Counted from the first letter of the stretch, positions 2,307 to 34,459 are shown. The stretch is 64,000 nucleotides of DNA from an uncultured Bacteroidales bacterium (GCA_964450375.1 CAYVEW010000003.1:935-64934), one strand, 5' to 3'. The notes: generated from the sequence alone by a model not told the origin. Made by a program: numbers and translations.

Positions 2307-3299
2307 ATGATATCGCGTGTATTAAAAAGTAATCAGCCTTTTGTAATTGTTTTCACTATCCTGCTCGGAGTGGGTTTGTGGTTATATAGTTTCTTAGAGC
2401 CCATACCCATGGCAATACCAGGCGATCAGTTAAAAATGCCCTTTTACACATTTGTTGCCGGTTTATTTAGCTATAAATCAACAGCATCTATTATTTTCTC
2501 TTTTGTACTGGTAATATTACAAGCTTTTTTACTGGTTCAATTTAATAAAAAATACATCCTGATTAATTATCGGACTTATTTACCTGCTTTTTTTTATATT
2601 CTAATTGCAAGTAGTTTTGTTCAGTTACAACGTTTAAATCCGGTTGGAATTGGGGTTATTTTTATCTTTATCGCCATTGATTTTATTTATGGTACTTATC
2701 GATCGGAGTATACATTAAGCAGATTGTATTTAGCTGGCTTTTTTGTTTCCATTGCATCCTTATTTTGGGCTCCATTTGCGGCATTATTTTTAATTATCTG
2801 GATCTCATTAACCATTTTACGCCCATTTGTTGGCAGAGAATGGATTGTTAGTTTACTGGGGTTTTTAACACCCTACTTATTTGGGTTTGTATATTATTTT
2901 GTGTTTGCCGATAGTCAGTTAAATGATTTTCTTCATGCTTTTTCTCAAAGTTTTGATTTAATAAAACAGTTTCATCATTTACATTATTCGTATTATATAT
3001 TTTATGGATTTCTTTTATTGGTTATGCTTTTTGCCAGCTTTAATATTATACGAGGCTTTCAAACGAAAAAAATTAAAACAAGAAAGTTTTTTGAAATTAA
3101 CTGGTGGCTATTTATGCTCGGTATTCTCATGTTTATCTTATTAAAGAACGTAAAATATGAGATTATCTTTTTATTGGGAATTCCTTTATCTTATTTATTA
3201 AGCGATTATTTTTATTCCATAAAACGTAACTGGTATTTAAATTCAATACTTATAATATTAATAGCATCGCTTGTATACATACAAATAATAGCACATTAA
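2307..3299 (+). CDS. Polytopic integral membrane protein of unknown function
   Basis: 330 aa with roughly 9-10 hydrophobic segments. Lies 11 bp after purD on the same strand. No catalytic motif recognised. Confidence 0.7.
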   Translation: MISRVLKSNQPFVIVFTILLGVGLWLYSFLEPIPMAIPGDQLKMPFYTFVAGLFSYKSTASIIFSFVLVILQAFLLVQFNKKYILINYRTYLPAFFYILIASSFVQLQRLNPVGIGVIFIFIAIDFIYGTYRSEYTLSRLYLAGFFVSIASLFWAPFAALFLIIWISLTILRPFVGREWIVSLLGFLTPYLFGFVYYFVFADSQLNDFLHAFSQSFDLIKQFHHLHYSYYIFYGFLLLVMLFASFNIIRGFQTKKIKTRKFFEINWWLFMLGILMFILLKNVKYEIIFLLGIPLSYLLSDYFYSIKRNWYLNSILIILIASLVYIQIIAH

Positions 3300-3310
3300 G
3301 TATGTGCTAT
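3288..3310. terminator. Hairpin between convergent genes; possible bidirectional terminator
   Basis: Perfect 9-bp stem ATAGCACAT/ATGTGCTAT with 5-nt loop; the stop codon of 2307..3299 sits in the loop. The T-rich flank is on the minus-strand side (TATTATTTGT); there is no clean U-tract on the plus side. Confidence 0.35.
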
Positions 3311-3333
3311 TAAAACTTTATAAAGAGTTGTGA

Positions 3334-3789
3334 TTATAATTTCTTAACGAACGAAAGTAAAGCAACTGCTAATCCTTGTTCTCCTTCTCTAAATGTAATC
3401 CATATATGATAAACTCCAGTGCTTGAGCACTTAAAGCTTACTTTCGGATAGCTTTGTCCTGTAGCAATATTGTAGTTTGTCGATAATAATCGGTTGTTAT
3501 CATAGAGCGAGAATACGGCTTGTCCCGAATAATCATTTGAATTACAGATGGTAAATAAATACTCTGTATTTTTACTCAATACAACAGAATATCTTGCTAC
3601 GGGGGGTTCTTCTCCTGGTCCGGCAGCATCAAGTTTTACCTGGAAATCTTTTAAGTACATTACATCTTCGCCGGCAACCATACCACATATATCAACAAGT
3701 TCCTGCCCCGATTGAGCGAATAGTTTGTTGCTATTGGCACTAATTAGAAATATTGCAAATAAGGTTAATATAAATAATGTGTTTCTCAT
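3334..3789 (-). CDS. Small secreted protein, unknown function (last gene of the minus-strand string)
   Basis: 151 aa with a signal peptide (LFILTLFAIFLISANSNKLFAQ). Starts 2 bp after the upstream lipoprotein gene ends. Confidence 0.6.
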   Translation of the reverse strand: MRNTLFILTLFAIFLISANSNKLFAQSGQELVDICGMVAGEDVMYLKDFQVKLDAAGPGEEPPVARYSVVLSKNTEYLFTICNSNDYSGQAVFSLYDNNRLLSTNYNIATGQSYPKVSFKCSSTGVYHIWITFREGEQGLAVALLSFVKKL

Positions 3790-3791
3790 AT

Positions 3792-4709
3792 TTACAATTG
3801 TATTATTTTATTTCGAACTTCAGCAGTTTTATCGATTATTTTAAACATGGTTTCGTTTGTAATATCAATATACTGTTTGTCATTCTGTTTAATTGTTAAG
3901 ATGCCATCAATAACAACTGTTTCTGGTTCTCCTTTTTCGTATGTTATGGTAACATCTTTATAAATATTTTGTATTTCCGTAAGATCGTCAATTAACACTT
4001 TAAATTTTGGATCTCGTTCATAATTTCTTAGTAAAAGCATTAAGTTGCTCAAAATAATTTTTTGTTCGCCAATTTTTTCTGAAAGTTCGGCATTTGGAGA
4101 TCTTCTAACAACTTCGCCTAATAAATACATACTTTCAATCCAAATACCAGCAACCATTAAAGAACTTAAATTACTCCTGTTGTTTTCACGCAAATATTGG
4201 TCCATTTGGTTAAAATTCTGAACAGAAATAGTCATTAATGAGTCAAGATTCTGATTATTAGTAGCTAATCGCTTCAGTGTTGTAAAGTCGAAAAACTGTC
4301 CAACGCGAATACCATCAGCTAACGTTTTAATGGTTGAAATATAATCAATCACCGAACCGGTTTTGTTGTACATATTCTGATAACCCAGGTCTGCCGCATA
4401 AATGCCTAGACCCAAAGCTTTTTTAAAACTTGTATTATAACTATCAATATAATCGGTGGTAGCTAAATATTCCTTAGAATAAGGTACACCTACCGCTTTA
4501 ATCAATGCTGCAATTTCTACTGGCGACGAGATATTTTGTACGATATCCTTCATTGCTTCTTCAGAAATTTCGTATTCTCCTTCGTATATTACTGAATCAG
4601 GAATTTCAAATTCCTGAGAATAGTCCGAATCTTTTGATTTATCTGAACGGCACGCTGCAAAAATCAGTAATGGTATTAGTATGTAAATCAAACGTTTGCT
4701 CATAATCAA
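3792..4709 (-). CDS. Lipoprotein, unknown function, predicted mostly helical
   Basis: 305 aa with lipobox LLIFAAC-R near the N-terminus. An alternative start at 4703 (MSKRL) is possible. Confidence 0.65.
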   Translation of the reverse strand: MIMSKRLIYILIPLLIFAACRSDKSKDSDYSQEFEIPDSVIYEGEYEISEEAMKDIVQNISSPVEIAALIKAVGVPYSKEYLATTDYIDSYNTSFKKALGLGIYAADLGYQNMYNKTGSVIDYISTIKTLADGIRVGQFFDFTTLKRLATNNQNLDSLMTISVQNFNQMDQYLRENNRSNLSSLMVAGIWIESMYLLGEVVRRSPNAELSEKIGEQKIILSNLMLLLRNYERDPKFKVLIDDLTEIQNIYKDVTITYEKGEPETVVIDGILTIKQNDKQYIDITNETMFKIIDKTAEVRNKIIQL

Positions 4710-4784: not shown

Positions 4785-7700
4785 TTATTTTTTCAACTTA
4801 ATTTTTTCCGGTAAATCCAGTAACTTTTTAAGTACTTCGTAATAGAGTGTAACATATAAGAATGCTGTCATAACCCAAATAAATATCATGTTAAACCAAT
4901 AGGTTTCATGGTATTTACCTGCAAAATATTTTCGTGGTGCATAAAAATGAGATCTGAAATTGAAAAATCCTTCAACATCCGGATCTTTAAATATAGGATC
5001 TTTCTGTTGTACCAACTCATCTTTATACTGTATAATCATATTTTTTTCAAATACTTTCTTTACCTGATCTTCAACACTTTCGTTGTGATATGCATTTCGT
5101 TTGCTTCGATACAACTCAGCATTTTTATTTAGTAAGTATCGAACAATGTTCTCTTTTTCGTTATTTGCTTTTTGAAAAATTACACTGTAATACGTTTCGA
5201 GTTTCTCAACAAACTCAATGGTTTTATTCAGTACAATTTCGTTAAACAGAGTTGTGTCTAGCTGATGAGCCGACTCAAATGGTATACCGGTTCTTTGCAC
5301 TTCTTTTGTTAATTCCTTTCTTAAGAGACTTAAATATTCAGCAGCTTTCTCCTTTACATCCTGATCTGTTTCAAATTTCCACCAGTTATCTTCTAAATAA
5401 GTAATTCGCTTTTCGAGTTCGGGTATGTAATAAACTTGCTTAAAATCGGCATTGCTTTCTCTCTTTTCTATATCGTAGAAATTTTTTTCGAATTCATTAT
5501 TTTTAAACTGATTTACCATTAATGCTTCAAACGACCATTTTGTAGGCATAAATTCTGCAATTAAAGGCACTTTTTTTACACTTCCCACGGCACGGTTCAT
5601 CTTATCGAAAGGAAACATCGCCCCGCTTAAAATCATCATTGGAATCATTAAAAGCGGTATTAAGATATAGATTGTTACAGCTGAGTTAAATGATGCAGAA
5701 ACGTTAAGCCCAAGCATGTTTGCAAATGCAGCAGTGGTGAATAAAGCAAACCAATATTCGAAAGTCATTGATCTGATTCCTAATATATTATTTGCGATCA
5801 ATACAAATAAGATGGCTTGTATGGCCGAGATGGAAAATAGGATAAATATTTTGGAAACCAAATAGCTCGATCTGCTCAAATTAAGAAAAGCTTCTCTTTT
5901 CAGAATTTTCCGGTCGCGGAATATTTCCTCTGCACTTACTGTTAATCCTAAGAAAAGAGCGACGATTAAACCCATGAAAATATAAATGTTTATGTTCTCA
6001 TTTTCGCGGAATATATACACTTTAGAATTAGGATCTGCTATGTAGCGGATAATATAGGATAATATAAATCCTAAAACGGGTGCTTCAAGCAAGTTTAATG
6101 CGATGTACTGAGTATTGCTTATTTTAGAAAGAAAATCGCGTATGGTATAAATTTTTAGTTGCCTGAACCATGAAGGGATGCTCAGGGTTGAAGGTGGATT
6201 TTCTTTAACAACTTCAATTTCTTCGAGTTTTATATTTTCACGGAAATTCTCTTCCCATTTTTGGGGCGAAATCTTTCGTTTGGGTGTATACTTACCGAAT
6301 TCATCAACTACTTTTGCTTCAATTATGTTAAATATGAGTTCGGGGTTTACATTACCGCAAGTGGGACATTCGCCTACATCACTGTTAATTTGGGCATCCA
6401 AACGTTTAAAATACATAACACCTTCAACCGGATTTCCATAATAGATCATGTAACCACCGGTATCTAAAATCATCATGTTATCGAACATTTTATAAATGTC
6501 GGATGATGGTTGATGTATGACCACAAAAATAAGTTTGCCTTTTAATGCTAATTCACGCAAAAGGTCCATTACATTTTCGGAATCTCGTGATGATAATCCG
6601 GATGTTGGTTCATCAACAAACAGGATCGATGGTTCGCGAATAAGCTCCAAAGCTATATTTAGTCTTTTTCTTTGACCACCGCTAATCATTTTATTTAACG
6701 GAGAACCGACTTTCAGGTCTTTTCTGTCGTAAAGCCCTAAACTGGTTAATGTTTTATGCACTAACTCTACAATTTCTTCTTCTGTTTTATCATTAAAACA
6801 GAGTTTTGCATTGTAGTATAAATTCTGAAAAACGGTTAATTCTTCAATTAAAAGATCATCCTGGGGAATATATCCAATAACACCTTCAAGTTTTTCTTTT
6901 TCGGTATGCAGATTGACACCATTAATAAGAATTTCACCGGATGTGGGTTTATTTAATCCTGCCAGTACATTTAGAAGTGTGGTTTTTCCGGCACCACTTG
7001 CTCCCATTAAGCCAATCAGTTTTCCCTGATCTTCGGAGAAATTAATGTCTCTTAGTCCGATTCCACCATTTGGGAAAACATAATTAATATTTCTTGCTGT
7101 GTATGATATTTTTGTTGATGTGCTATCGGCCAGGTAGTGAGCAACAATATCACTATAATAAATTGGTTTGCCTTTGGGCAGTTTTATGGTTCCTCCGGAA
7201 GCAAATAAGTAAATTCGTTTGTTATTTACAGGTAAACCATTTAAGAATATGTCTTCTTTCCCATTATAACGCATAAAGTAGAGATCAACACTTCTAACCT
7301 GTAGGATAAAAATATTGCCATCTAAGGCTTCAACTTTAACATGTTTGCATTGTTTGTAGTCGATCTCATCCTGTTCATTAATAATAAGGTTTGCAGGATT
7401 ATCAAGTTCCGATATTTCATTGTGTATTACGAAACTTTCAATACTTAAAAATTCTTCTTTGGTAAGTTTAAATACTTCGGCAACGGTATTGATAATGGCC
7501 ATTCGTTGTTCCGAGAATTTTCGGTCGGCATTTACAAGCTCGAACAAACGCACCAAAACAATTACTTTTTGCTGTTGCGTAAGTGTTTTGTTGATTTTTT
7601 TACATATTCCTAAAATTCTTACTGAATCTTTAACCGAAGTTAGCTTTACGGTATCTGATTTTTCAGCTTTTTCTTCGTTAAATCCGGCCTTTTCATCGAA

Positions 7701-7850
7701 AAGAGCAAGATACTCCGGAACTGCTTCATCATTAAGCTGTTGAGTTAAGAAATTTTTTACATATTCCCTTTCGTTGGATTCTACTCCTTCGTCTTGTTTT
7801 GCAATAATTGCAAATAACTGCATAAGGGCTTTCAATATTTCTTCACTCAT
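4785..7850 (-). CDS. Fused ABC transporter: N-terminal TerB-like domain, uncharacterised beta-rich linker, ABC ATPase, ABC-2 (ABCG-like) permease, long C-terminal extension with a terminal TM helix
   Basis: 1021 aa. Walker A GASGAGKTT (aa 283-291), signature SGGQRKR, Walker B ILFVDEPTSGLS, H-loop VIHQPS. About 6 TM helices at aa ~570-770. The N-terminal ~130 aa resemble TerB (paired amphipathic helices with D-x-x-x-E, e.g. AIIAKQDEGVESNEREYV). Confidence 0.85.
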   Translation of the reverse strand: MSEEILKALMQLFAIIAKQDEGVESNEREYVKNFLTQQLNDEAVPEYLALFDEKAGFNEEKAEKSDTVKLTSVKDSVRILGICKKINKTLTQQQKVIVLVRLFELVNADRKFSEQRMAIINTVAEVFKLTKEEFLSIESFVIHNEISELDNPANLIINEQDEIDYKQCKHVKVEALDGNIFILQVRSVDLYFMRYNGKEDIFLNGLPVNNKRIYLFASGGTIKLPKGKPIYYSDIVAHYLADSTSTKISYTARNINYVFPNGGIGLRDINFSEDQGKLIGLMGASGAGKTTLLNVLAGLNKPTSGEILINGVNLHTEKEKLEGVIGYIPQDDLLIEELTVFQNLYYNAKLCFNDKTEEEIVELVHKTLTSLGLYDRKDLKVGSPLNKMISGGQRKRLNIALELIREPSILFVDEPTSGLSSRDSENVMDLLRELALKGKLIFVVIHQPSSDIYKMFDNMMILDTGGYMIYYGNPVEGVMYFKRLDAQINSDVGECPTCGNVNPELIFNIIEAKVVDEFGKYTPKRKISPQKWEENFRENIKLEEIEVVKENPPSTLSIPSWFRQLKIYTIRDFLSKISNTQYIALNLLEAPVLGFILSYIIRYIADPNSKVYIFRENENINIYIFMGLIVALFLGLTVSAEEIFRDRKILKREAFLNLSRSSYLVSKIFILFSISAIQAILFVLIANNILGIRSMTFEYWFALFTTAAFANMLGLNVSASFNSAVTIYILIPLLMIPMMILSGAMFPFDKMNRAVGSVKKVPLIAEFMPTKWSFEALMVNQFKNNEFEKNFYDIEKRESNADFKQVYYIPELEKRITYLEDNWWKFETDQDVKEKAAEYLSLLRKELTKEVQRTGIPFESAHQLDTTLFNEIVLNKTIEFVEKLETYYSVIFQKANNEKENIVRYLLNKNAELYRSKRNAYHNESVEDQVKKVFEKNMIIQYKDELVQQKDPIFKDPDVEGFFNFRSHFYAPRKYFAGKYHETYWFNMIFIWVMTAFLYVTLYYEVLKKLLDLPEKIKLKK

Positions 7851-7894: not shown

Positions 7895-8275
7895 TTATAA
7901 AGTATAACTTACTTGTTCGAATGGTACATCAACAATGTCAGCATATTCTTCACCGGCTTCTTCCATGTCTTCATCATCTTCGGGATAATACCATTTTATT
8001 AGCACTTCTTTACCATTCTCGTGCATTTCTTCCAGTTTCATAAGAATGTCAAGAATTAGTTTTGATGAAGCGGTATTGAAATAAACCAGTTTAAATGCAA
8101 AAACCGTTTTATCGTTTGCTTCTTCCTGATAATCGTCTAACCAGTTAAGGATAGGCTCATAAAATGTAGTTACATCCTCAGGAAGCGATCTGCCTGAAAT
8201 TTCAAAAATACCATTATCCTTGTCGAGAATTATAGTAGGGGTATCATCTGTACCTTTTATCTTTATTACTTCCAT
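7895..8275 (-). CDS. SiaC-like regulatory phosphoprotein (DUF1987 family)
   Basis: 126 aa. TPTIILDKDNGIFEISGRSLPEDVTTFYEPILNWL and VYFNTASSKLILDIL are the characteristic DUF1987 blocks. Lies next to a SiaB-like kinase and a PP2C phosphatase. Confidence 0.8.
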   Translation of the reverse strand: MEVIKIKGTDDTPTIILDKDNGIFEISGRSLPEDVTTFYEPILNWLDDYQEEANDKTVFAFKLVYFNTASSKLILDILMKLEEMHENGKEVLIKWYYPEDDEDMEEAGEEYADIVDVPFEQVSYTL

Positions 8276-8293
8276 GATATTTTAACGTTTTTA

Positions 8294-8869
8294 TTAAGCA
8301 TTTCTAGAAATTGATGATGTTAATAAGAAGAACGAACTTCCTTCGTCAATCGGTAAAAAGTGGAATTCCAGCTTATTTCCGGTTTTTCGGGCTATGTCAA
8401 TGAAACCAAGCCCTGCACCACCTTTTTCAGAAAGTCTTCCTTCTTTCATCTGATTTTTATACAGTTGCTTCAGACCATCTTTGTCTAAGCTGTTGATATG
8501 GTCCAACATTTCAGTAAGCTCTTCGATTTTGTCATTTTCGATTACATTACCTGTGGTAACATGATAATCGGTTTTTCCTTTACTTACCATGAAAATGCCT
8601 CGTCCTGCAAAAAGAAAATCATCTGATCCAAAAGAATCGGCGTGTTTACTAATGTTTTGCAGACACTCAACCATAACATGGAATACCTTCTTCTGCACTG
8701 AGTTTGCCTCTGACTCCTTAGCCATGTTTGATTCAGTAAGAGAAGTAAATGCTTTGGTAATCTGGTGGGTAATTTCCCCCTCATATACCAAAGTGATCTC
8801 GTGAGCTTTCATTGATCTGTAAAAATCGTAAACAAATTCCAGAAAGCCTTTTACATTACTTTTATCCAT
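8294..8869 (-). CDS. SiaB-like protein kinase (GHKL/HATPase-fold, anti-sigma-kinase-like)
   Basis: 191 aa. N-box-like ECLQNISKHA and G-box KGGAGLGFIDIARK. Size and context match SiaB-family kinases. Confidence 0.75.
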   Translation of the reverse strand: MDKSNVKGFLEFVYDFYRSMKAHEITLVYEGEITHQITKAFTSLTESNMAKESEANSVQKKVFHVMVECLQNISKHADSFGSDDFLFAGRGIFMVSKGKTDYHVTTGNVIENDKIEELTEMLDHINSLDKDGLKQLYKNQMKEGRLSEKGGAGLGFIDIARKTGNKLEFHFLPIDEGSSFFLLTSSISRNA

Positions 8870-8907
8870 AGGTTGTAAAATTAATATTTATTAAAATTAA
8901 TAAAAAA

Positions 8908-11514
8908 TTAAAATTCTATTCCAATCAATAACACATCATCGATTTGTTTGTTCTTACCCATCCATTTTTTAAAATCGACAGAAAACAAGTTCGAATATTG
9001 TTGCATTGATAAATTATTGTTCTCTAAAATGTTATCTCTAATTCGCTGTGGCGAGTATTTTCTTCCTTCCGGACCACCAATCTGGTCTGGCAATCCGTCA
9101 GAGAATATAAATATTTTATCGCCTTTTTTAATTTCAATAATGTGATTTATAAAATCTTTCTCCGCCTTTTTGCGATGAGGAATTCCACCTATCGCTTTTC
9201 TATTTCCTTTATATTCCAGAAGTTCACCATCCCTTAGCAGAAATAAAGGCCGATGAGCTCCTGCATATTGTAATTGTTTTTTCTTCGGATCAATTCTACA
9301 TAAAGCAATATCCATTCCATCGCGTGCATCTGCATCAATTCTGTCTTGTTTTAAGGTTGTTCTTACTCCAAAATGCAACTTATCTAAAATTTGCCCTGCT
9401 GTATAGTTTACATCATGATCGACAATATTGTTTAATTGAAAATATCCGATAAAAGATAAAAGTGCACCGGGAACCCCATGGCCTGTACAATCTACAGCCG
9501 AAATATAAAGTATATCTTCTTTTTTAAAGAACCATGGAAAATCGCCACTTACCACATCGCGTGGTTTATAAAAAATAAATGATTTTGGCAGATATTCCTG
9601 AATAATAGTTGTGCTTGGTAAAATAGATGTTTGAATTCGTTGAGCGTAATTGATACTTTCGTTAATCTTTTTGTTTTTATCAATGATCTCAAGTTCAATT
9701 TGTTTTGCTTCGGTAATATCGTGCCCCACAAATAGAACGGTCTCCAGTTCATTTTCGTTAAATTCCGGTATTGCGTTAAAGCTCATTATACGCTCACCCA
9801 GTTTAGCTGTTGGGGTAGTTAATTCTTCGTTAATCTTTTGGTTGGTCTTACGCACCTGGCGTATCGTTTCTTTGAAAAATGTGGATAATGTTGGCTCAAT
9901 GTTTAACTCGTCGATCCGCGAATTAATAATTTCTGCCGCTTTCATACCCATAAAATTCTCAACCATAGGATTGGCATAGAAAAACTGTCCCTTGGTATTC
10001 ATTCGTAAAATCAGGTCGGGACTGTTTTCAGAAAGAGACTGCATTTTACTTTTCATTCGTTCTTCTTTTTCTGCTCTCTTTCTTTCGGTTATATCCTGCG
10101 AATTTAGAATAATACCACTAATTGCAGCATCATCCAGCAGATTTCTACCGGTTGTTTCAATGTGAATTTTTTTACCGTCCTTTTTTATATAGGTGTATTG
10201 AATGGTTCGTGGAGTGTGCGGATCTTCTAAAAGCAAATCAAACATTTCTTTCATGGCAGCTTCACCCTTGGCGGTAAGCCGGTCCATGTCTTTTCCGCTC
10301 ATCATTTCTTCAGGAGTGTATCCTAAGATTTTTAACACCGACGGACTTTGATATTTCAGTTTTAGTTCTTCGTCGTAAATTGAAATTACTTCCGATGCAT
10401 TTTCCAGCAGGGAATGTAAACGTTTTTGGGCATTTTCAACTTCTTTAACCTGAGTTTCTAAATTACGATTCGAAATTTCGAGCTCTTCCTGGGTTGCTCT
10501 CATTTCTTCGGCATTTTGTCGAAGTTGTTCTTCGTTGGCTCTTAACTCTTCGGTCATTTTCTGAGACTCCTGCAACAGTTTCTCAGTTTTCTGGTTCATA
10601 CGAAGATTATACAGCGTACGGGCAATAATTTCTCCCAGTTCTTTTAAAAAATCGATTGTTAATTGCGGAAACTGGTCTTTGATTGATGCAAACTCAAGTA
10701 CCCCCTGAAGTTTTTCTTCAGTTATTAATGGTACAATTAAAATGCTGCAAGGTTTTTTATCGCCTAAAATTCCTGATGTTATGGTAGCATAATCTTCCGG
10801 AATCTCGGTTCTGTAAACAAAAGCCTTTTCGTAAGCACATTGCCCTATTAATCCTTCGCCCACATTAAATTCCTGGTTAATATATCTTCTGCGATTGTAA
10901 GCGTAGGTTGCAATATTTTGAAGTTTTTGTTCTTCTTCGTCATAAATATAAAAAGCACCCTGAATAATGTCAACATACTTAATTAGCTGAACAACAACTT
11001 CGTAAGCTAACTCGTTGATGTTATTGTGCATTCGAAGAATTCCTGAGATCAGATCTTTTCCTTCGGATATCCAGTTTTGTTCTTTTTCTTTTTTGCTGTT
11101 TGCTAAAAGGTTATCGCGCATTAACAGCAACGATTTGGCCAGTATATCGTCTTTACTCGAAACATCAACACTTTCGTCGTAATTACCTTCGCCAATTTTT
11201 TTTGCTAGGGTTGCATTCTTGCTAATGTTTTGATCGCGTTGTTCAATAATCTTCTTAAAAACTTCTTTGTCACGCTCCCGGTGCTGCAAATAAATGTATA
11301 TTATGCCAGCAATAACGATAGGGCTAACATTAATTATCCAATGAATTGGATTTGACTGATGAATTTGGGCAATTGTTTTAAAACTTACGGGTAAGTTGTT
11401 AACGAGAATATCGATTATCCATGAGATAAGAATCAGGATAAATGAAATTCCGACACCAATAATTATATCGTTGTAAGAGATTTTACGTATTTGGTTATCT
11501 TTATCTACAGCCAT
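8908..11514 (-). CDS. Membrane sensor phosphatase: TM / HAMP-like / GAF / E,Q-rich coiled coil / 2x PAS / PP2C (SpoIIE) domain (SiaA-like role)
   Basis: 868 aa. N-terminal TM helices. GAF block (GEGLIGQCA...EIPEDYATITSGILG...LEFAS). PAS S-boxes. C-terminal SpoIIE/PP2C motifs (VSGDFPWF, DCTGHGVPGA, DGMDIALC, FSDGLPDQ). Confidence 0.85.
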   Translation of the reverse strand: MAVDKDNQIRKISYNDIIIGVGISFILILISWIIDILVNNLPVSFKTIAQIHQSNPIHWIINVSPIVIAGIIYIYLQHRERDKEVFKKIIEQRDQNISKNATLAKKIGEGNYDESVDVSSKDDILAKSLLLMRDNLLANSKKEKEQNWISEGKDLISGILRMHNNINELAYEVVVQLIKYVDIIQGAFYIYDEEEQKLQNIATYAYNRRRYINQEFNVGEGLIGQCAYEKAFVYRTEIPEDYATITSGILGDKKPCSILIVPLITEEKLQGVLEFASIKDQFPQLTIDFLKELGEIIARTLYNLRMNQKTEKLLQESQKMTEELRANEEQLRQNAEEMRATQEELEISNRNLETQVKEVENAQKRLHSLLENASEVISIYDEELKLKYQSPSVLKILGYTPEEMMSGKDMDRLTAKGEAAMKEMFDLLLEDPHTPRTIQYTYIKKDGKKIHIETTGRNLLDDAAISGIILNSQDITERKRAEKEERMKSKMQSLSENSPDLILRMNTKGQFFYANPMVENFMGMKAAEIINSRIDELNIEPTLSTFFKETIRQVRKTNQKINEELTTPTAKLGERIMSFNAIPEFNENELETVLFVGHDITEAKQIELEIIDKNKKINESINYAQRIQTSILPSTTIIQEYLPKSFIFYKPRDVVSGDFPWFFKKEDILYISAVDCTGHGVPGALLSFIGYFQLNNIVDHDVNYTAGQILDKLHFGVRTTLKQDRIDADARDGMDIALCRIDPKKKQLQYAGAHRPLFLLRDGELLEYKGNRKAIGGIPHRKKAEKDFINHIIEIKKGDKIFIFSDGLPDQIGGPEGRKYSPQRIRDNILENNNLSMQQYSNLFSVDFKKWMGKNKQIDDVLLIGIEF

Positions 11515-11527
11515 AAGATATAAATAA

Positions 11528-12298
11528 TTAATATTTGCTTAAAGCTTTTCCAATTTGCTCATTCATTCCTTCAAACAATTGATTAAAGTTTTTCTTAAAC
11601 TCTTTAAACGAAGCTAACTCGATAATTGCAATTGTTTCCTCCTGATAAACAATTGGAATAATGTTTAAGTGATTTGGCGAGCTGCTTCCTAATCCGGATA
11701 ATATCGTAACATAGTTTTCAGGAATTTCTTTTAAATTCAGTACGGTTTTGTTTTTTGCTGCCTGCCCCGACAAACTTTCACCTATTTTAAAACTTTTGGG
11801 TTCTTCTTCACCAAAGTATGCATATTTACCGGCAATATTAAAAATATCTGATTCTTTTTCTTTAACAAAAAACAAACCTTGCACAATATTGAATTCTTTG
11901 GCGATATTACTTAATAACTTTTCGGTGTACTTGACCAAATCCATTTTGGAATCTTCTTTTGGCAAGATCTTTTTAATGTAACTATCGATATCTAATAATT
12001 CATCTTGTGAAACATCATTTGAGTTTTCGTCTTTTTTCGAAGAATCATCATCCAATATTTTTATTTCTGATGATAAGTCTTCGGCTTCGGATTGTCTGCC
12101 ACTAAGAATTACCGCAACAAATAGGATAAATCCAAAGATGATTAAAAGAATGATTAAAACGTAGATGCCATTTCCACCAAGCTTGATTTGGTTTTCTGCA
12201 ATCAGGTTTCGAATGCTGCTAAACAGAATAAATGATATTATTAACTCTGCAATTAGAGAAATAAAAGCTAATATTTTAATTATCTTCGAATTATTCAT
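11528..12298 (-). CDS. Two-TM membrane protein with acidic linker and C-terminal GAF domain
   Basis: 256 aa with two N-terminal TM helices. The GAF block (IGESLSGQAAKNK...EIPENYVTILSGLG...IELASF) is paralogous to the GAF of the downstream PP2C sensor. Confidence 0.7.
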   Translation of the reverse strand: MNNSKIIKILAFISLIAELIISFILFSSIRNLIAENQIKLGGNGIYVLIILLIIFGFILFVAVILSGRQSEAEDLSSEIKILDDDSSKKDENSNDVSQDELLDIDSYIKKILPKEDSKMDLVKYTEKLLSNIAKEFNIVQGLFFVKEKESDIFNIAGKYAYFGEEEPKSFKIGESLSGQAAKNKTVLNLKEIPENYVTILSGLGSSSPNHLNIIPIVYQEETIAIIELASFKEFKKNFNQLFEGMNEQIGKALSKY

Positions 12299-12307
12299 GA
12301 AATAATA

Positions 12308-12865
12308 TCATTTTATATTTAATAAAAAATTAATAATCTGATTGGTTGTAAATATATGATCAACGGGTGTAATTTTCAAAGATGCTTCGGTCATTGTTTT
12401 AACCTGACATTCGTTTGGATCCTGCACAATAGCAAGCCCTCCCAGTTGTTTTAGTTTTTTTAATCCATTAGCACCGTCCCGGTTTGCTCCCGACAGGATG
12501 ATTCCGATTATTTTATCGCGGTATGCCTGCGCAGCTGTTTCAAAAGTTAAATCAATTGAAGGCCTTGAATGATTTACAGGTTCTTCGGTTGATAAGGCAA
12601 TTCTTTTGTTTAACTCGATGTACATATGATAATTTGAAGGAGCTAAATATCCTCTTCCCGGTTTAATGGTTTCCTTATCATATGGTTCGTCAATCGGTAT
12701 TTTGGATTTTATCGACAGTGCTTCCACAAAGCCAGACCGAACATGTTTTAACCTGTGCAAGCTTAGCAAAACAGGTAAAGGAAAATTTTTAGGTAAGGAA
12801 CTTAATATTTTTGTAATTACCTGAAAACTTCCTGCTGATCCGCCTATAACAACTGCCTTATACAT
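12308..12865 (-). CDS. cheB: CheB-type protein-glutamate methylesterase, catalytic domain only (no receiver domain)
   Basis: 185 aa. VIGGSAGS (Ser nucleophile region), SLHRLKH (His), ILSGANRDGANG (Asp), and LAIVQDP typical of CheB_methylest. Confidence 0.85.
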   Translation of the reverse strand: MYKAVVIGGSAGSFQVITKILSSLPKNFPLPVLLSLHRLKHVRSGFVEALSIKSKIPIDEPYDKETIKPGRGYLAPSNYHMYIELNKRIALSTEEPVNHSRPSIDLTFETAAQAYRDKIIGIILSGANRDGANGLKKLKQLGGLAIVQDPNECQVKTMTEASLKITPVDHIFTTNQIINFLLNIK

Positions 12866-12876
12866 TTAATTTGTCT

Positions 12877-13707
12877 TTAAGATAATTTCTTTTTATAAAT
12901 ACTTTCAGACCGATTAACCAGCGTATAATCCTTATCCGAATTCCAGTATTCAATCTTTTCATTGTTTCCAATAACCAGATGTCCTCCCGGAACCAGACAA
13001 TTATACATAATTTTCACAAAACGTTCCTGTAAAATCTGATTATAATAAATCATTTGATTACGGAACAATATAAACTTAATCCCTTTAGGATAATCATCAA
13101 ATATAATACTTTGTTTGATAAATTTGGTATTATCTATTAAAGAAGTATCCCAATAAGCTTTATCGTTTTCGTATGTAAAATAATCCGATAATTCCGACTC
13201 GGCATAAATACGCTTATAGTTTGCATCGTTGGTTTCGATCTTTTTAGGATCGAAAATCCCGGTTTTTACATTCTCGAGATTTTTTTCGCTGATGGATGAA
13301 ACAATAAACTGGACATTATTTAACAGGTTCAGTTTTTTAAGAACAATTGCGGTGGAATATAATTCTTCACCCGATGAAACTTCCGGAAACCAAATTTTAA
13401 AATTGGGTGTGTTGTTAATTAACTGGGGGAAGTATTCATCATTTAGCACTCTCCACAAGGATGGATCGCGAAACATTTCAGTAACATCAACACACATAAA
13501 TTGTAAAAATGTTTCGATAAAACCGGGCTCTACTTTTAGTTTTTTAAGAAAACCGTCAGCATCTTTTAGGTTGTAGTTTTGGATTAGATTTTCAACCCTG
13601 CGCTTAAAAAAAGTGAGTGCATAATTTTTAAAATCATAATCGTAATCATCTTGCAATGTTTTGATTATCATTCGCGTGTCTACTATGCCTAATTCGAACT
13701 TATTCAT
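12877..13707 (-). CDS. cheR: CheR-family methyltransferase, divergent paralog
   Basis: 276 aa. TEMFRDP, IWFPEVSSGEELYS and FRNQMIYY align with CheR motifs, but the A-S-D-[IL] motif reads V-S-S-I. Confidence 0.8.
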   Translation of the reverse strand: MNKFELGIVDTRMIIKTLQDDYDYDFKNYALTFFKRRVENLIQNYNLKDADGFLKKLKVEPGFIETFLQFMCVDVTEMFRDPSLWRVLNDEYFPQLINNTPNFKIWFPEVSSGEELYSTAIVLKKLNLLNNVQFIVSSISEKNLENVKTGIFDPKKIETNDANYKRIYAESELSDYFTYENDKAYWDTSLIDNTKFIKQSIIFDDYPKGIKFILFRNQMIYYNQILQERFVKIMYNCLVPGGHLVIGNNEKIEYWNSDKDYTLVNRSESIYKKKLS

Positions 13708-13728
13708 TTTTACACACTTTTTCCTTTT

Positions 13729-14568
13729 CTATTTTTTTCTGTAAGCTTGTCCTTTCTTGTCGAATTTTGATGTAATTTCTCCAAGCATGGTTTCGTGCAT
13801 ACCTAATACTAAATACCCATTGGTATATAAATGATCGTGAAATAATTTAAAAACTTTATTTTGCAGGCTGTATTTAAAATAGATTATTACATTTCTACAA
13901 AGAATTAAATCAAATTTTGCAAAATACAAGTTTCCTCCTTTTACCAGATCATGTTGTCTGAAAATAGGTTTTTTCTTCAGAAACTCGTTCATTGTAATGG
14001 TATCGGTAACCTTATCTATTTTAAAATACTTGTTATAAGGAACATCGTTATATTCATCGTAATTAAACGGATTTTCCTTAATAACCTTATCAAAATTATC
14101 CAGATAGCCAATGTTAAAACGATACTTATAATTACCTTTTTTGGCAGCTTCCAGAGCATCTATATTTAAATCGCTGGCAAATATTTTAGCTTTATCGAGC
14201 AAATCCAGCTCATTTAATAGAATCATCATAGAATATACTTCCTGACCGGTTGAGCAGCCGGCATGCCAAATGTTTATATTTTTGTTTTCGGAAAATTTAG
14301 GTAATATTCTGTAGCGCAATGTTTGCCAGATCTGTGGATCACGAAATAATTCGGTTGTGTTAACTGTAATATCTTTAACCGTTTTTTCCAGGAAATCTTT
14401 GTTGGTCTTTAATTTATTAATTAAAGTTAACAGATCCATATTATTATCGATCAAAATTTTTTGTAGGCGCCGTTTTAGTGATTTTTCTGAATACTCACTA
14501 AAATCATAATTCGACACATTTTTAATTGTGTTAATAAAAAAGTTAACATCTTGATCAGTTAGGACCAT
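13729..14568 (-). CDS. cheR: CheR-type protein-glutamate O-methyltransferase
   Basis: 279 aa. TELFRDP, IWHAGCSTGQEVYS, IFASDLN and CRNVIIYF are canonical CheR N-terminal and SAM-binding motifs. Confidence 0.88.
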   Translation of the reverse strand: MVLTDQDVNFFINTIKNVSNYDFSEYSEKSLKRRLQKILIDNNMDLLTLINKLKTNKDFLEKTVKDITVNTTELFRDPQIWQTLRYRILPKFSENKNINIWHAGCSTGQEVYSMMILLNELDLLDKAKIFASDLNIDALEAAKKGNYKYRFNIGYLDNFDKVIKENPFNYDEYNDVPYNKYFKIDKVTDTITMNEFLKKKPIFRQHDLVKGGNLYFAKFDLILCRNVIIYFKYSLQNKVFKLFHDHLYTNGYLVLGMHETMLGEITSKFDKKGQAYRKK

Positions 14569-27537: not shown

Positions 27538-28020
27538 ATGAATCAGGTATATTTATTGATCGGTGGAAATCTGGGAGATCGCTTTGAGTTATTGAAAAGT
27601 GCCGGAAAAGGAATTGAGAAACAAATAGGGGATATTGTTAAAGAATCGTCGATATACGAAACGACAGCGTGGGGGTTTGAATCGGAAAATGATTTTTTAA
27701 ACCAGGTGCTTCTTGTTAAAACAGATTTAAAACCCAAACAGATTCTGGAACAATGCCAGTTAATCGAAAAGCTTTTGGGTCGTGTTCGGCAGTCGGGACA
27801 TTATGCTTCCCGAACTATGGATATTGATATTTTATTTTACAATGATGAGATAATAAATGAACCGGATTTAACGATACCGCATCCACATTTGCATAAAAGA
27901 AGATTTACACTGGAACCGCTAAACGAGATTTCTCCGGAATTTATTCATCCAAGATTTAAACAAACAGTCAGACAATTATTATCTGACTGTAATGATGATT
28001 CTACTTTAAATATTTTATAG
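27538..28020 (+). CDS. folK: 2-amino-4-hydroxy-6-hydroxymethyldihydropteridine diphosphokinase
   Basis: 160 aa. LIGGNLGDR, RTMDIDILFY, IPHPHLHKRRFTLEPL. Confidence 0.92.
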   Translation: MNQVYLLIGGNLGDRFELLKSAGKGIEKQIGDIVKESSIYETTAWGFESENDFLNQVLLVKTDLKPKQILEQCQLIEKLLGRVRQSGHYASRTMDIDILFYNDEIINEPDLTIPHPHLHKRRFTLEPLNEISPEFIHPRFKQTVRQLLSDCNDDSTLNIL

Positions 28021-31000
28021 TTTAATAATTTGATAGCTTAATCTTGTATTGTTAAATTCTATAGAGACAAAATAAACTCCGGGTGGAAAATTACTTATAT
28101 CAACATCCCGTTTCTTATACTTAGGATCATTGAATAGTAGCTTACCACTTTGATCTACAATCAACAATTTATACTCAATAATTTCACTTGGTATACTTAG
28201 AGTTATAATACCATTGGTTGGATTTGGGTATGCTCTTATCTGTTTATTATCTAATTTATGATTTATACTAGTATTAGTACTTTTAAACTTAATGAATAAA
28301 TTCATATTTTCAGTTACATAAGTATAAAGTGCAACATAGTAAGGGCCCTGATACCAAGAACTATCTATACCCAAGTCTTCTCCATTATAAGAAATGGAAT
28401 CTATACCATATTGTAATAATGGTTCAATGTAAATTGTTAAGTAATTACCAGCTAATAGAGTTGTATCCATTGGTGTTACTACACCATCTCCTGTTGTTGT
28501 TACGATTAAACGACAAGTGTCTCGAACAAATGTTACTTCCAGCGTATCATCTTGGAATACATCTTTTAAAGTATATATTGAAGAGTCGCCATATTCAACT
28601 AACTCGTCAAGAATACTATTCCCCCCAAATTCAGCCCTCATTATTTTATATATTAAACCTGGTTTAATAATAATTTCTGTAGTATCGATATAAGTAGTAG
28701 TAAAATTCGAAGGGTTTATTTCGCCTTGACCATGAACAATAGTTGTAATTTTGTACGTTTTTGGTTTAAACGTTAAATATAAAGTATCGTTTTGCAATAA
28801 ACTATCTATTGTATAGGTATAATGATTATCTATTTTTATAAGATCTTCAACAATGTTTTTATTACCAAACATAGCTGTATCAATAGTAAAATGATCGTCT
28901 GCTGCAATAATGTATTGAATTTTATCAAAGAATGTAATTTGAGTATCACGTGGAGTTACTGTTCCATTTTCACCAATAATGGTTTTAATATTAAAGGTGT
29001 CGGGCACGAACGTAGCTTTTATTTCATGATCAGAAGTTACATCAAAGAATGTGTAAGTAAAAATGGAATCTACGTAAATATTATCAACCCACAGTGAGTC
29101 CATTAAACAGCCAATATTGGGAACAAATGTAAATTTTCTATCTTGCCCATTAAGGACATTGGCGATTGCTGGTAGAACTTTACCATAATTATTTACAGTA
29201 ATGGAAATTGTATGATCGAAATATTCATATGCTCCAATATCAATAGTATCACCTGCTATTCTCGATTTTAATCTAAATTCAGTATCTGGCAAATTTAATC
29301 CTGTAGTATCCGGGCTTCCGGCATTAATTAATTCCGAATCTTGCCCAATCATTAAGCTATCATATAAACTTGTTCCATTAAAAGGATTTTCTGTTAGCAA
29401 TATATTGCTGGCGCTGAAAGAGGAAAGATCATTTCCTGAAGCGGTATATTTAATTATTGAACCTCCTCTATTATGCACATCATTGTTACCGCTTCCTGAA
29501 AAGTTACCATAAGCAAGGCAATTAATCATTTCACTATAATATACAATACTTCCACCTCCTTCTTCTTCTGAGTAATTATTTGACAAGCTACAATTAATCA
29601 GTTTAGAATTCCAAAAAGTATAGGAGCCTCCTCCAGAATCACTTGCGTAGTTTCCAATAAATATACAGTTGTAAAACCGATCGTATCCATCCGAATAAAC
29701 ACCTCCACCAAATTTGGCTGAGTTTTTATAAAACAAGCAATTTATAACATCTAGTCTTGCATTGCCTTCAGAATATAGTCCGCCACCGTAAATTTCTGAA
29801 TACCCGTGCTGAATTGTTAGATTTTTTAACTTAATACTTCTGGGATCGTTATAGTAATAGTCAAATTTAAATATTCTTATGCTATCTCCTCCATCTAAGA
29901 CAATTCTATTGGTTCCACCATCAATTGTCAAATTTTTATCTCCTAAAACAATCTTTGATGTAACATTTATAGCATAATCACCATCAAACAGTATTAGCCC
30001 ATTATCTTTTATGTGAGCTAAGGCCCAAAAAAAGCTTTTTTCTACTAACACATTAGAACTATTATTTGTAACAGTGATAGTATCAAAGTATTCTAATGGG
30101 GCATTTTTATAATAAGAACTTTCATAAGCTCCAATATCAATAGTGTCATTTTGAATTCGGTTATTTCCTGCTAAATCATAATCTGGTAAGCTTAAACCAC
30201 TTGTGCTAGGTGTACCTGCGTTACTGCAATAAGAATTACTATTTAATTGATAACTATTCCCTTCAAAAGGAGATGTGTATAATCGAATATTATTACTTCC
30301 TTGTAAAGCTGCATCTGCAGCACAATATTTTATAATATCACCATATACTATTTTTACATCGTCACCATTTGCAGATGTATTATTGTAAAAAAGGCAATTA
30401 ATAAAATCACTTTCCCCAGAACTATATATCCCTCCACTTTCTACTCGTGATTTATTATCTGCAAAAGTGCAGTTTACAAAAATATTTCCTTTACAACTCC
30501 AATAACCCGAACTAGTATTCGAGTAAAGAGCACCTCCAGAATAATCGGAATAATTATTAATAAATACAGAATTATAAATGGAAACACCCTCTGTTCCTGA
30601 TAATATGGGTTTTATATATATTGCTCCTCCATAAACAGCACTATTTTCTTTGAATAAACAACTTGTTATAACAAAATTACCTCCAGTGTTTATATTTATA
30701 TTTAAGGCCCCACCTTGTGATCTCGAATATCCATTTTGAAATGTTAGCGATTTAAACTGGATTACCGAAGTGGATTTACCGTTATATATAAAGAACTGAG
30801 TACTATCTCCTCCATCGAATACAATTTGATTTGCACCACCATCAATTGTTAAGCTCTTATTTCCTAATTCAATTTCAGATGTAAAATTAATTGTATAGTC
30901 ATTATTGAAAGTTATAAGGCAGCTATCATCAGCATGCGCTATTGCCCATGGAAGGGAATTATCTATTCCGGCATCAAAGCTATTATTTGTAACAACTATA

Positions 31001-33214: not shown

Positions 33215-34459
33215 TTAAATAGTTAGTTCAAAAGTGGTTCCGATATTAATTTTGCTTTTAACCTGAACGCTTATATCATTCTTTTCCAGAAAATCTTTCG
33301 TTAAAAATAAACCTAAGCCGGAGCTGCTTTCTCCTGATGTTCCCGAATGCTGATGTGCCCCGGAATAAGTAAACAAATTTTCTATTGTTTCCCTATCCAT
33401 TCCAATACCTGTATCTTCAATTGAAATAATGGTATGACCTCCTTTTTTACTTATCTGTATCCTGATTTTACCCTGGGTTTTATTAAACTTAACCGCATTT
33501 GAAAGAATATTCCGAAGAGAAGTTCTAAGCATATTTTCATCTGCAAATACCATGATGTTATGATCATCATAATCCTGCACAACTTCAATGTTTTTCATAT
33601 TGATGGATAACTTAAAAAAGGATAATAAACTATCAACCATCTCGATTACATTAATTTGTTTTTTTTCGGGCTCTAAATGTAGTAAATCATTTTTCGACCA
33701 ACTTAAAAGATTTTCTAAAACCATAAAAGCCGAGTTGGTCATATGATTCAATGAAATTAAATCTTTTTTTAACTTATCTTTTTCGTAAGTATCGAATTTA
33801 GTGATGATTAATTTTAAAAATTCATTTAAAGTACCAATACCACCGCGCACATCATGCGATATTAATGACAAAAACCTTGTTTTTATATCACCGGTTTCTT
33901 CCAGGCTTTTATTTAAATCTTCTAACTCAAGTTTGGAAAAAATTAATTGTAAATCCGATTCAATGTGTTTTTTTGTCAGATACAGTAATTTTTTAAAGTT
34001 ATCGTTAAAGCTATTTTCTTTATTATCTAATAAACAGACTGTTCCAAATACTTTTCCGTCGGGCCAGTTAATCGGATATCCCAGGTAAGAAATCATGTTA
34101 ATGTCAACATCAGGATTGTTTTTCCCCCACACAGTGCTTTTGGTTGCATCCGGAACAAGAAGTTCATCTTGTGTTCCAATAACTGTTTCACAATATAATC
34201 CATAAATCAGGTCTGCTTTTTCTCCGGCATGATATGGATTTCCATCCGTCTGACTTTTTAAAAGAACTTCAATCGTGTCTTCATTTAGTCTCATTATTAA
34301 ACCTGATGGAACATCAACAATTTTTGCAACGGTATCTATTAACGATTGCCATTTTTCAGTGATATTTGAAAAAACATCCAATTTTACATCCGAGCGAATC
34401 GAAACCGATTTCGTTTCGTTTCTTTCCCGAATGATAATTTTTGATTTCGTTTCTTTCAT
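33215..34459 (-). CDS. Cytoplasmic sensor histidine kinase with N-terminal GAF domain
   Basis: 414 aa. H-box FLSLISHDVRGG, N-box NILSNAVKF, G-boxes EDTGIGMD and GLGLFL. There is no response regulator in the vicinity. Confidence 0.85.
   Translation of the reverse strand: MKETKSKIIIRERNETKSVSIRSDVKLDVFSNITEKWQSLIDTVAKIVDVPSGLIMRLNEDTIEVLLKSQTDGNPYHAGEKADLIYGLYCETVIGTQDELLVPDATKSTVWGKNNPDVDINMISYLGYPINWPDGKVFGTVCLLDNKENSFNDNFKKLLYLTKKHIESDLQLIFSKLELEDLNKSLEETGDIKTRFLSLISHDVRGGIGTLNEFLKLIITKFDTYEKDKLKKDLISLNHMTNSAFMVLENLLSWSKNDLLHLEPEKKQINVIEMVDSLLSFFKLSINMKNIEVVQDYDDHNIMVFADENMLRTSLRNILSNAVKFNKTQGKIRIQISKKGGHTIISIEDTGIGMDRETIENLFTYSGAHQHSGTSGESSSGLGLFLTKDFLEKNDISVQVKSKINIGTTFELTI

Follow-up and report, generated by a model that had tools for sequence, protein, structure and literature searches.

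Chemotaxis-type methylation enzymes and a Sia-type Ser/Thr partner switch very probably form one functional unit in an uncultured member of the Bacteroidales, judging from the sequence of their shared locus and its conservation in other genomes. The locus lies on the minus strand of a 64,000-nucleotide stretch of DNA (GCA_964450375.1, CAYVEW010000003.1:935-64934), which was analysed whole and is hereafter called the window; positions are counted from its first letter. Two CheR-family proteins, a stand-alone CheB, a small GAF-domain protein and a membrane sensor phosphatase are encoded there together with a SiaB-family kinase and a SiaC-family phosphoprotein, followed by a putative ATP-binding cassette (ABC) exporter and two small exported proteins. 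Methylation by CheR and CheB is textbook sensory adaptation and is almost always discussed for arrays of methyl-accepting chemotaxis proteins (MCPs) and CheA. A first-pass annotation of the window had proposed that these enzymes are coupled here to a Ser/Thr partner switch rather than to a His-Asp relay, and comparative genomics supports such a coupling. On balance, the locus reads as a ten-gene signalling-and-export operon of Bacteroidota composed of three sub-modules.

Organization of the locus

Ten open reading frames (ORFs) run co-directionally along the minus strand. From 5' to 3' they encode CheR1 (13729..14568), CheR2 (12877..13707), CheB (12308..12865), a small GAF protein with two transmembrane (2TM) segments (11528..12298), an 868-amino-acid (aa) sensor phosphatase (8908..11514), a SiaB-family Ser/Thr protein kinase (DUF6272; 8294..8869) and a SiaC-family phosphoprotein (DUF1987; 7895..8275). 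These are followed by a 1021-aa protein with TerB, a beta-rich segment, an ABC ATPase and an ABC-2 permease (4785..7850), a predicted 305-aa lipoprotein (3792..4709) and, as the final gene of the unit, a 151-aa exported protein (3334..3789). The first-pass annotation had described the first seven as co-directional genes 9-38 bp apart; ORF calling reproduces their coordinates exactly, with successive gaps of 21, 11, 9, 13, 38 and 18 bp. Its gene string was thus right in content but too short in extent, as three more genes continue in the same direction downstream. The spacing past SiaC is 44 bp to the TerB-ABC gene, 75 bp to the lipoprotein gene and 2 bp to the gene for the 151-aa protein, and all three belong to the same unit. 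Annotation of the first seven proteins with the profile hidden Markov models of Pfam and NCBIfam agrees with the domain calls made earlier.

A consensus scan of the minus strand between positions 3000 and 15000 located one terminator-like site and none within the ten-gene string. This site is a hairpin (3286..3312, read 3312-3286) directly 3' of the tenth gene, where it would close the unit. A scan for sigma-70 promoters returned 53 sites against 52.8 expected from shuffles, showing no enrichment, and no obvious Bacteroidota-type TAnnTTTG motif lies upstream of CheR1.

Conservation of the CheR/CheB-Sia linkage

A genome scan that took one genome per species and a CheR2 alignment as query identified 50 loci, every one of them in a bin of uncultured Bacteroidales or Bacteroidota. 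As far as their contigs extend, all preserve the order CheR1-CheR2-CheB-GAF-sensor-SiaB-SiaC-ABC. Unrelated flanking genes (encoding a carbamoyltransferase, an EEP phosphatase, an outer-membrane protein and DUF6427) are also syntenic within this clade; collinearity within it was therefore set aside as weak proof of function, and reliance was placed on distant lineages with different flanks. The ten-gene string persists even where upstream synteny is lost.

Among the distant lineages are two cultured Cytophagales, Rhodocytophaga rosea (CP048222.1) and Flexithrix dorotheae (KB903434.1). Both encode the module CheR-CheB-GAF-[dCache_1-HAMP-GAF-PAS-PAS-SpoIIE]-SiaB-SiaC-TerB/ABC, followed by genes for proteins of ~300 and 145 aa, in flanks entirely unlike those of the window. 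The same module is present in a Cytophagales bin (L146), again with unrelated flanks. Relatives of SiaB pointed to cultured Cytophagales, and CheR-CheB was found in three of four loci looked up from SiaB. Among cultured organisms the module occurs in Rhodocytophaga, Flexithrix, Flammeovirga and Limibacter, its gene context being verified for Rhodocytophaga and Flexithrix. The fourth locus, L147 from a Thermoflexibacter sp. (Ga0484864_000267), encodes the sensor, SiaB, SiaC, the ABC protein and two small genes, with no CheR, CheB or small GAF gene within 10 kb. This locus is preceded by SusC/SusD and has a 90-aa ORF between SiaC and the ABC gene.

With a varied set of aligned CheB sequences as its seed, a metagenome scan yielded 80 loci, of which 32 with at least 5.5 kb downstream of CheB were informative. 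SiaB and SiaC both occur in 24 of the 32, all but one of these (23) also with a PP2C sensor. RsbK-type kinases combining GAF, histidine kinase (HK) and receiver (REC) domains are present without Sia genes in seven, and a single locus has neither context. An MCP or CheW lies within 10 kb at two of the 80 loci (L112, L122). Distant CheB contexts are of four kinds: CheB-SiaB-SiaC (L057), CheR-CheB-GAF-sensor without SiaB or SiaC (L059), CheR-CheR-CheB alone (L058) and REC…-CheR-CheB (L061, L062). One further locus, L114, reads CheR-CheR-CheB-SiaB-SiaC-ABC without a sensor or small GAF gene. The sub-modules can therefore separate, as L147 and L114 illustrate.

The first-pass annotation had named a linkage not conserved in related genomes as evidence against its proposal. 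As found here, the linkage is kept in all 50 Bacteroidales species and in Cytophagales, and it dominates the metagenomic contexts of this CheB lineage; intact full-length ORFs occur in over 70 loci. That the linkage persists in two orders despite unrelated flanks is good evidence of a single functional unit.

CheR and CheB proteins

The methylation genes had been described as a canonical CheR, a second and divergent CheR, and a 185-aa CheB catalytic domain without a receiver, and all three descriptions hold. CheR1 (PF01739, 2e-38, together with CheR_N) is a canonical CheR-type S-adenosylmethionine (SAM)-dependent glutamate methyltransferase and probably active. Its alignment to Bacillus subtilis CheR (5FTW) retains the SAM-ribose Asp (ASDLN) and the KRR helix, and its mean column identity is 84% (49 sequences). 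Other clusters with two CheR genes likewise retain motif II (A[ST]D[IL]N) in CheR1, and the lone CheR of Cytophagales and RsbK-type clusters retains A[ST]D[ILF][ND].

CheR2 (PF01739, 1e-22) has an invariant Ser138 (VSSIS) in place of the SAM-ribose Asp. In CheR2-type copies beside CheB this Asp is gone in nearly every lineage, with replacements that vary between lineages (SSIS, TSLS, SHIS, TCLN, SVFT, MCPS and others). The basic KRR helix of the N-domain is still present, and the protein evolves faster than CheR1, with a mean column identity of 67% versus 84%. CheR2 is therefore probably a non-catalytic paralog, possibly one that binds substrate or serves as an adaptor.

CheB, a stand-alone methylesterase/deamidase catalytic domain, matches CheB_methylest (PF01339, 3e-49) with no receiver domain. 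Its triad of Ser10, His37 and the Asp of RDG aligns with Thermotoga maritima CheB (3SFT), and its mean column identity is 86%. In an exhaustive search of 1.8 billion representatives, its closest relatives were stand-alone, receiver-less proteins of ~190 aa and a few CheB-REC-HK, CheB-REC and CheR-CheB fusions. The receiver is absent or C-terminal throughout this lineage, which is thus not of the classical REC-CheB type. An origin from giant CheB-CheR-PAS-HK fusions was considered and rejected, as the relatives are mostly stand-alone and fusions few. The fusions P0259, P0279, P0262 and P0333 (CheB-REC or CheB-REC-histidine kinase) carry the receiver C-terminally, the reverse of the classical order. 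Two other CheB representatives, P0242 (557 aa) and P0245 (570 aa), have two CheB catalytic domains per chain, with a coiled coil and a Cys-rich segment resembling a zinc ribbon as the connection between them.

Membrane sensor phosphatase and its signalling helix

The 868-aa protein comprises two transmembrane segments, a HAMP-like linker, a GAF domain, a signalling helix, two PAS domains and a SiaA-type PP2C domain. Pfam matches to GAF_2, PAS (twice) and SpoIIE bear out its earlier reading as a TM/HAMP-like/GAF/coiled-coil/PAS/PAS/PP2C protein. HAMP is recognised by Pfam only in the Cytophagales orthologs, which also add dCache_1. The C-terminus is PP2C, and Pfam detects no HisKA, HATPase or REC in the sensor. 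All metal-binding motifs of the PP2C domain are kept (RDVVSGDF, DCTGHGVPGA, SDGLPDQ and DDV), and its sole match in the PDB is Pseudomonas aeruginosa SiaA (6K4E, 3e-35). The sensor scores 167 bits against the NCBIfam SiaA equivalog model (cut-off 700), in a match confined to the PP2C end; by this measure the domain is a family relative of SiaA, not an equivalog.

The neighbouring small protein, earlier called a 2TM-GAF protein, matches GAF_2 at 1.9e-5 (25.3 bits, under the Pfam cut-off of 28.6). Its GAF region is a paralog of the sensor GAF domain (35% identity, 7e-16). All fully sequenced loci with both CheB and the sensor contain the gene, and it is gone when either is missing. At one locus (L080:11337-14121), the small GAF gene and the sensor gene are separated by inserted genes for a 172-aa exported protein and a 732-aa protein; by eye, the larger product resembles a TonB-dependent receptor.

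The signalling helix (sensor residues 309-366; 10417..10590, minus strand, translation verified) lies between the GAF and PAS domains and is a candidate methyl-accepting segment. It is present in 69 of 71 sensor orthologs, in both orders, and its QNAEEM core is invariant in 63 distinct helix sequences, as are E337 (10504-10506) and E344 (10483-10485). The heptad d positions recur every seven residues in the window sensor (L324, L331, M338, L345, L352) and read L/L/M/L across orthologs, with acidic pairs at the preceding b and c positions (E322/E323, E329/Q330, E336/E337, E343/E344). Four [EQ][EQ][LM] triplets are thus spaced seven residues apart, in the same b-c-d register as EETAASM of Tsr, and E336-E337-M-R-A-T fits the classical MCP methylation site Glu-Glu-x-x-Ala-Ser/Thr. 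Two positions interchange Glu and Gln among orthologs, that of Q330 (Glu in 33, Gln in 20) and that of E322 (Glu in 30, Gln in 14), an alternation that resembles MCP sites deamidated by CheB. A single-sequence AlphaFold2 model, unreliable in its GAF and PAS parts, predicts a continuous helix with a predicted local distance difference test (pLDDT) score of 83-94.

The helix motif also occurs in three further architectures, all encoded beside stand-alone CheR-CheB. In sensors of CHASE3-like/HAMP/GAF/helix/PAS architecture that lack an output domain the helix reads QEEEMRQNMEE[LM].ATQEE, and in RsbK-type hybrid kinases it repeats as EEL[RK]VQQEELQQAN.ELEE. The third is a 922-aa MCP-domain protein of metagenome contig Ga0302280_1000027 (L122), which carries the motif EEMRAQEEELRQNMEEMEATQEEM upstream of a PAS domain. 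This MCP-domain protein sits in a full che cluster, divergent from the stand-alone CheR-CheB pair. Among the 789 ORFs compared, no unrelated one has the core helix motif. Large output-less sensors bearing the helix are encoded between two CheR genes at loci L070, L077, L090, L097 and L102 and upstream of a single CheR at L076, L079, L080, L086, L089 and L106. They are 507-891 aa long and have the GAF domain and post-GAF helix in common; only for L070 and L079 was the complete CHASE3-like/TM/HAMP/GAF/helix/PAS-PAS architecture read. Such proteins look like methyl-accepting sensors without an effector domain, and the QNAEEM helix common to the four architectures may be a portable methyl-accepting element. 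Taken together, these features tip the balance slightly towards the helix of the sensor phosphatase acting as a methyl acceptor, with E337 and E344 as the best candidate residues, followed by E323 and Q330.

Switch proteins and putative exporter

The two proteins encoded after the sensor had been called a SiaB-like GHKL kinase and a DUF1987 SiaC-like protein, and profile searches place them in the SiaB and SiaC families. SiaB matches the SiaB family model NF038262 (179.7 bits, cut-off 85) and PF19788 (3e-45), and its PDB match is P. aeruginosa SiaB (6KKO_A, 5e-15); the NCBIfam equivalog model NF038264 is not reached (90 bits, cut-off 225). SiaC matches PF09345 (146.8 bits, 3e-43) and likewise falls short of its equivalog model, NF038265 (95.7 bits, cut-off 150). 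Its Thr68 (codon 8072-8074), set in a conserved YFNT(A/S)S motif, aligns with the phospho-Thr68 of P. aeruginosa SiaC (6KKO_C). SiaB is the most constrained gene product of the string, with a mean column identity of 94% (41 sequences), and SiaC reaches 91%; these values and those of CheB and CheR1 indicate strong purifying selection.

The TerB-ABC gene, in which Pfam recognises TerB, ABC_tran and ABC2_membrane, follows SiaC in every locus of the genome scan with enough flank and in 14 of 16 such metagenomic Sia loci. It also follows SiaC in R. rosea, F. dorotheae, L146 and L147. The ABC protein begins with 20 residues (MSEEILKAL.QLFAII.KQD) that are invariant in Bacteroidales and Cytophagales alike. 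TerB and the ATPase are separated by a beta-rich segment at residues ~150-258, and residues 150-262 have a pLDDT below 50 in the single-sequence model. The lipoprotein, which has a signal peptide with a Cys, is encoded after the ABC protein in Bacteroidales and Cytophagales loci alike, and the gene for the small exported protein (~145-150 aa) is conserved alongside it in both. At E<=1, Pfam matches nothing in the beta-rich segment or the C-terminal extension of the ABC protein, nor in either of the two small exported proteins. SiaC could dock within the N-terminal region of the ABC protein (residues 1-262, window 7065-7850), and the exporter has an even chance of being the SiaC-controlled output. 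The output position is occupied by an 834-aa PAS-HK-REC kinase at L095 and by a giant secreted repeat protein of 1856 aa at L097.

Screen for chemotaxis components, and other genes of the window

As first reported for the window, no CheA, CheW, MCP, CheY or GGDEF protein was found in it by a coarse Pfam and tblastn screen. The tblastn searches, with queries (E. coli CheY, CheW and Tsr signalling domain, and a GGDEF consensus) that give coarse sensitivity, detected no MCP, CheW, CheY/REC or GGDEF in the window or in the 50 related loci with 10-kb flanks. Pfam revealed no Che or GGDEF protein among ten unclear window ORFs, and the remaining ones were classed as housekeeping by eye only. Classical partner-switch proteins were also sought: B. 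subtilis SpoIIAA and SpoIIAB as queries gave no match beside CheB in the metagenome loci. No RsbV, RsbW or sigma-factor family occurs among the window proteins run against Pfam, a screen that included no search aimed at sigma factors.

Elsewhere in the window, an unrelated 414-aa GAF-HATPase_c kinase with no recognisable HisKA is encoded at 33215-34459 on the minus strand, and no receiver partner for it was found in the window. The minus-strand gene at 28015-32859 encodes a 1614-aa secreted protein with a Chlam_PMP repeat and a Por_Secre_tail sorting domain, which identifies the host as a member of the Bacteroidota with a type IX secretion system.

Comparison with known signalling systems

The switch resembles that of P. 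aeruginosa, in which SiaA and SiaB toggle phosphorylation of SiaC at Thr68 and unphosphorylated SiaC activates the cyclase SiaD (PMC8457831). Phosphatase, kinase and phosphoprotein are all specific homologs, and the gene order phosphatase-kinase-phosphoprotein-target is the same. However, a TerB-ABC exporter stands at the target position, with no SiaD or GGDEF protein in the window or the 50 flanked loci, and CheR, CheR, CheB and the small GAF protein are added upstream. The GAF domain, signalling helix and two PAS domains of the sensor fall outside the SiaA equivalog model, and the NCBIfam equivalog cut-offs for SiaA, SiaB and SiaC are all unreached. DUF1987 proteins have been proposed to modulate adjacent proteins generally (eLife 2021, PMC8457831).

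The closest parallel for the methylation enzymes is Bacillus cereus RsbK, a CHASE3-HAMP-GAF-S-helix-HK-REC protein whose post-GAF S-helix is methylated by RsbM (PMC4574943). RsbK signals to the REC-PP2C protein RsbY and an RsbV/RsbW switch, and RsbM is without a cognate esterase (PMC4574943). The observation that RsbK and CheR are associated in genomes is credited to de Been et al. 2011 (PMC12848376). Both systems place a CheR-type methyltransferase gene beside a non-MCP membrane sensor with a HAMP-GAF-helix arrangement, and in both a post-GAF helix, putatively methylated in the present case, precedes a PP2C and a Ser/Thr partner switch in the signalling chain. The sister context of the present CheB lineage is moreover an RsbK-type kinase with CheR-CheB encoded behind it. 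The 2011 study is also reported to have proposed demethylation by CheB-like proteins. In contrast to RsbK, the present sensor is fused directly to PP2C, and there is no histidine kinase, receiver or His-Asp step. Methylation should be reversible here, because a CheB is present, which the RsbM system lacks. Further differences are a second, degenerate CheR, an additional 2TM-GAF protein, and a switch of the SiaB/SiaC rather than the RsbW/RsbV type with an ABC exporter rather than a sigma factor as its neighbour. The logic would thus be that of RsbK/RsbM, a methylated post-GAF helix acting on a PP2C and then on a partner switch, but with the histidine kinase relay removed, an esterase added, a Sia-type switch used and an ABC exporter as the probable output.

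Wsp-type chemosensory pathways (WspA MCP, WspC CheR, WspF CheB, WspE CheA, WspR cyclase) also use CheR/CheB-family enzymes to tune an output other than motility. The candidate acceptors of the present sensor, like the methylation sites of MCP systems, are heptad-phased Glu/Gln pairs in the MCP register. Unlike in the Wsp-type pathways, neither the window nor the flanks of the orthologous loci yielded an MCP signalling domain, CheW, CheA or CheY in the coarse screen; CheB is receiver-less, and the signal would run through Ser/Thr phosphorylation rather than a CheA phosphorelay. In the literature collection searched by full text, no description was found of CheR/CheB coupled to SiaABC, DUF1987 or DUF6272.

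Proposed mechanism and alternative explanations

In the proposed mechanism, the methylation sub-module would consist of CheR1 as the active methyltransferase, CheR2 as a degenerate substrate-binding paralog and the receiver-less CheB as esterase/deamidase. The small 2TM-GAF protein and the membrane sensor phosphatase would constitute the sensor sub-module, and SiaB, SiaC, the TerB-ABC exporter and the two small exported proteins a switch/output sub-module. PP2C activity would be set by the GAF and PAS inputs of the sensor, and PP2C and SiaB would toggle phosphorylation of SiaC at Thr68. One phospho-state of SiaC would then bind the N-terminal region of the adjacent ABC protein and gate export, in parallel with SiaC and SiaD. 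The heptad-phased Glu and Gln residues of the GAF-PAS helix would be methylated by CheR1 and demethylated or deamidated by CheB. Such methylation would shift helix packing and reset phosphatase output, providing gain control or adaptation without an MCP, CheA, CheW, CheY or histidine kinase. From sequence comparison we infer that the helix receives methyl groups, in which direction regulation runs, that SiaC and the ABC protein interact, and what roles CheR2 and the small GAF protein play. As a whole, a kinase-free adaptive pathway in which reversible CheR/CheB methylation of the helix is the memory of the SiaB/SiaC switch, SiaC gates the exporter by direct binding and CheR2 and the small GAF protein act as adaptors can be put forward only tentatively.

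Several observations weigh against the proposed mechanism. The helix of L147 is fully intact though no CheR or CheB lies within 10 kb, so that helix conservation needs no linked methylation genes; this locus was examined to see whether the helix relaxes when they are absent, and it did not support the acceptor hypothesis. The sensors of L059 and L097 are without the helix. The L097 cluster holds two helix-bearing GAF sensors as another carrier, and at L059 the upstream gene ending in REC is a possible one. The string CheR-CheR-CheB-SiaB-SiaC-ABC of L114, and in shorter form of L063 and L057, has no sensor or helix carrier within 10 kb, and the CheR/CheB loci do not all have one local candidate substrate in common. 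The helix itself is of the single parallel coiled-coil type rather than the four-helix hairpin used by CheR and CheB in MCPs; there is no MCPsignal match in the sensor, and the candidate site lies outside an antiparallel four-helix adaptation bundle. The extended MCP site consensus is matched in its C-terminal half only. Finally, the gene after SiaC differs in L095 and L097, and the CheB-seeded metagenome sample is biased toward relatives of its seed, P0246.

The strings with no sensor or helix carrier, the sensors without the helix and the retention of the helix at L147 would suit CheR and CheB enzymes that belong to the unit and methylate another of its components. The substrate could then be the small 2TM-GAF protein, SiaB, SiaC (through its acidic C-terminus), the TerB region or, from another part of the genome, a GAF sensor lacking an output domain. 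The restriction of the small GAF gene to loci with both CheB and sensor, and the output-less helix-bearing sensors between two CheRs in five loci, fit this explanation as well. However, SiaB, SiaC, the small GAF protein and the TerB region are without a conserved heptad-phased EExxA[ST]-type site, and the linker of the small GAF protein is poorly conserved. The post-GAF helix is the only non-MCP substrate of a CheR-type enzyme shown by experiment (PMC4574943), and the helix motif appears beside CheR-CheB in all four of its architectures. A different substrate within the unit is accordingly considered unlikely, and methylation of the sensor helix remains the preferred reading. Members of the Bacteroidales and Cytophagales typically glide, have no flagella and lack a chemotaxis core. 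This argues against incidental adjacency, in which CheR and CheB would work for a conventional MCP-CheA pathway from another part of the genome, next to an independent operon of Sia-like genes. Such independence would account for the two metagenome loci with an MCP or CheW nearby, and for the occurrence of the Sia part without adjacent che genes (L147) and of CheR-CheR-CheB without adjacent Sia genes (L058). It is made highly improbable by a linkage kept across two orders with unrelated flanks, the narrow gaps of 9-38 bp with no internal terminator-like site and the outcome of the coarse screen, which found no MCP, CheW or REC in the window or in the 50 related loci with 10-kb flanks. The receiver-less CheB lineage likewise speaks against it, its closest relatives lying beside RsbK-type kinases or being fused to REC-HK rather than residing in che operons.

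The che genes could also be decaying relics of a lost chemosensory system, with the Sia/ABC part alone functional. The fast evolution of CheR2, its missing SAM-ribose Asp and the dispensing with CheR and CheB at L147 would fit such decay. In contrast, CheR1 and CheB keep all catalytic residues, and their mean column identities exceed the 49-74% identity to the window of the unrelated upstream carbamoyltransferase gene; ORFs are intact over their full length in over 70 loci. Decay is on these grounds very improbable indeed.

Biological implications

The one documented experimental exception found to CheR-type methylation of MCPs, RsbK/RsbM of B. cereus, still has a histidine kinase and is without an esterase. 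With the present module, reversible glutamate methylation would reach a sensor whose signalling is purely by Ser/Thr phosphorylation; if true, CheR/CheB would for the first time have a substrate other than an MCP or a histidine kinase. The module would also give the widespread SiaB/SiaC (DUF6272/DUF1987) switch a candidate non-cyclase target in the ABC exporter and, if true, the first case of partner-switch control of a transporter. As the module occurs in cultured organisms, the hypothesis is directly testable. More broadly, the locus suggests that methylation-based tuning has been reused outside chemotaxis in non-flagellated Bacteroidota. If true, this would explain the presence of chemotaxis-type methylation genes in many of these bacteria and give a role to the orphan cheR and cheB genes of their non-motile and gliding members.

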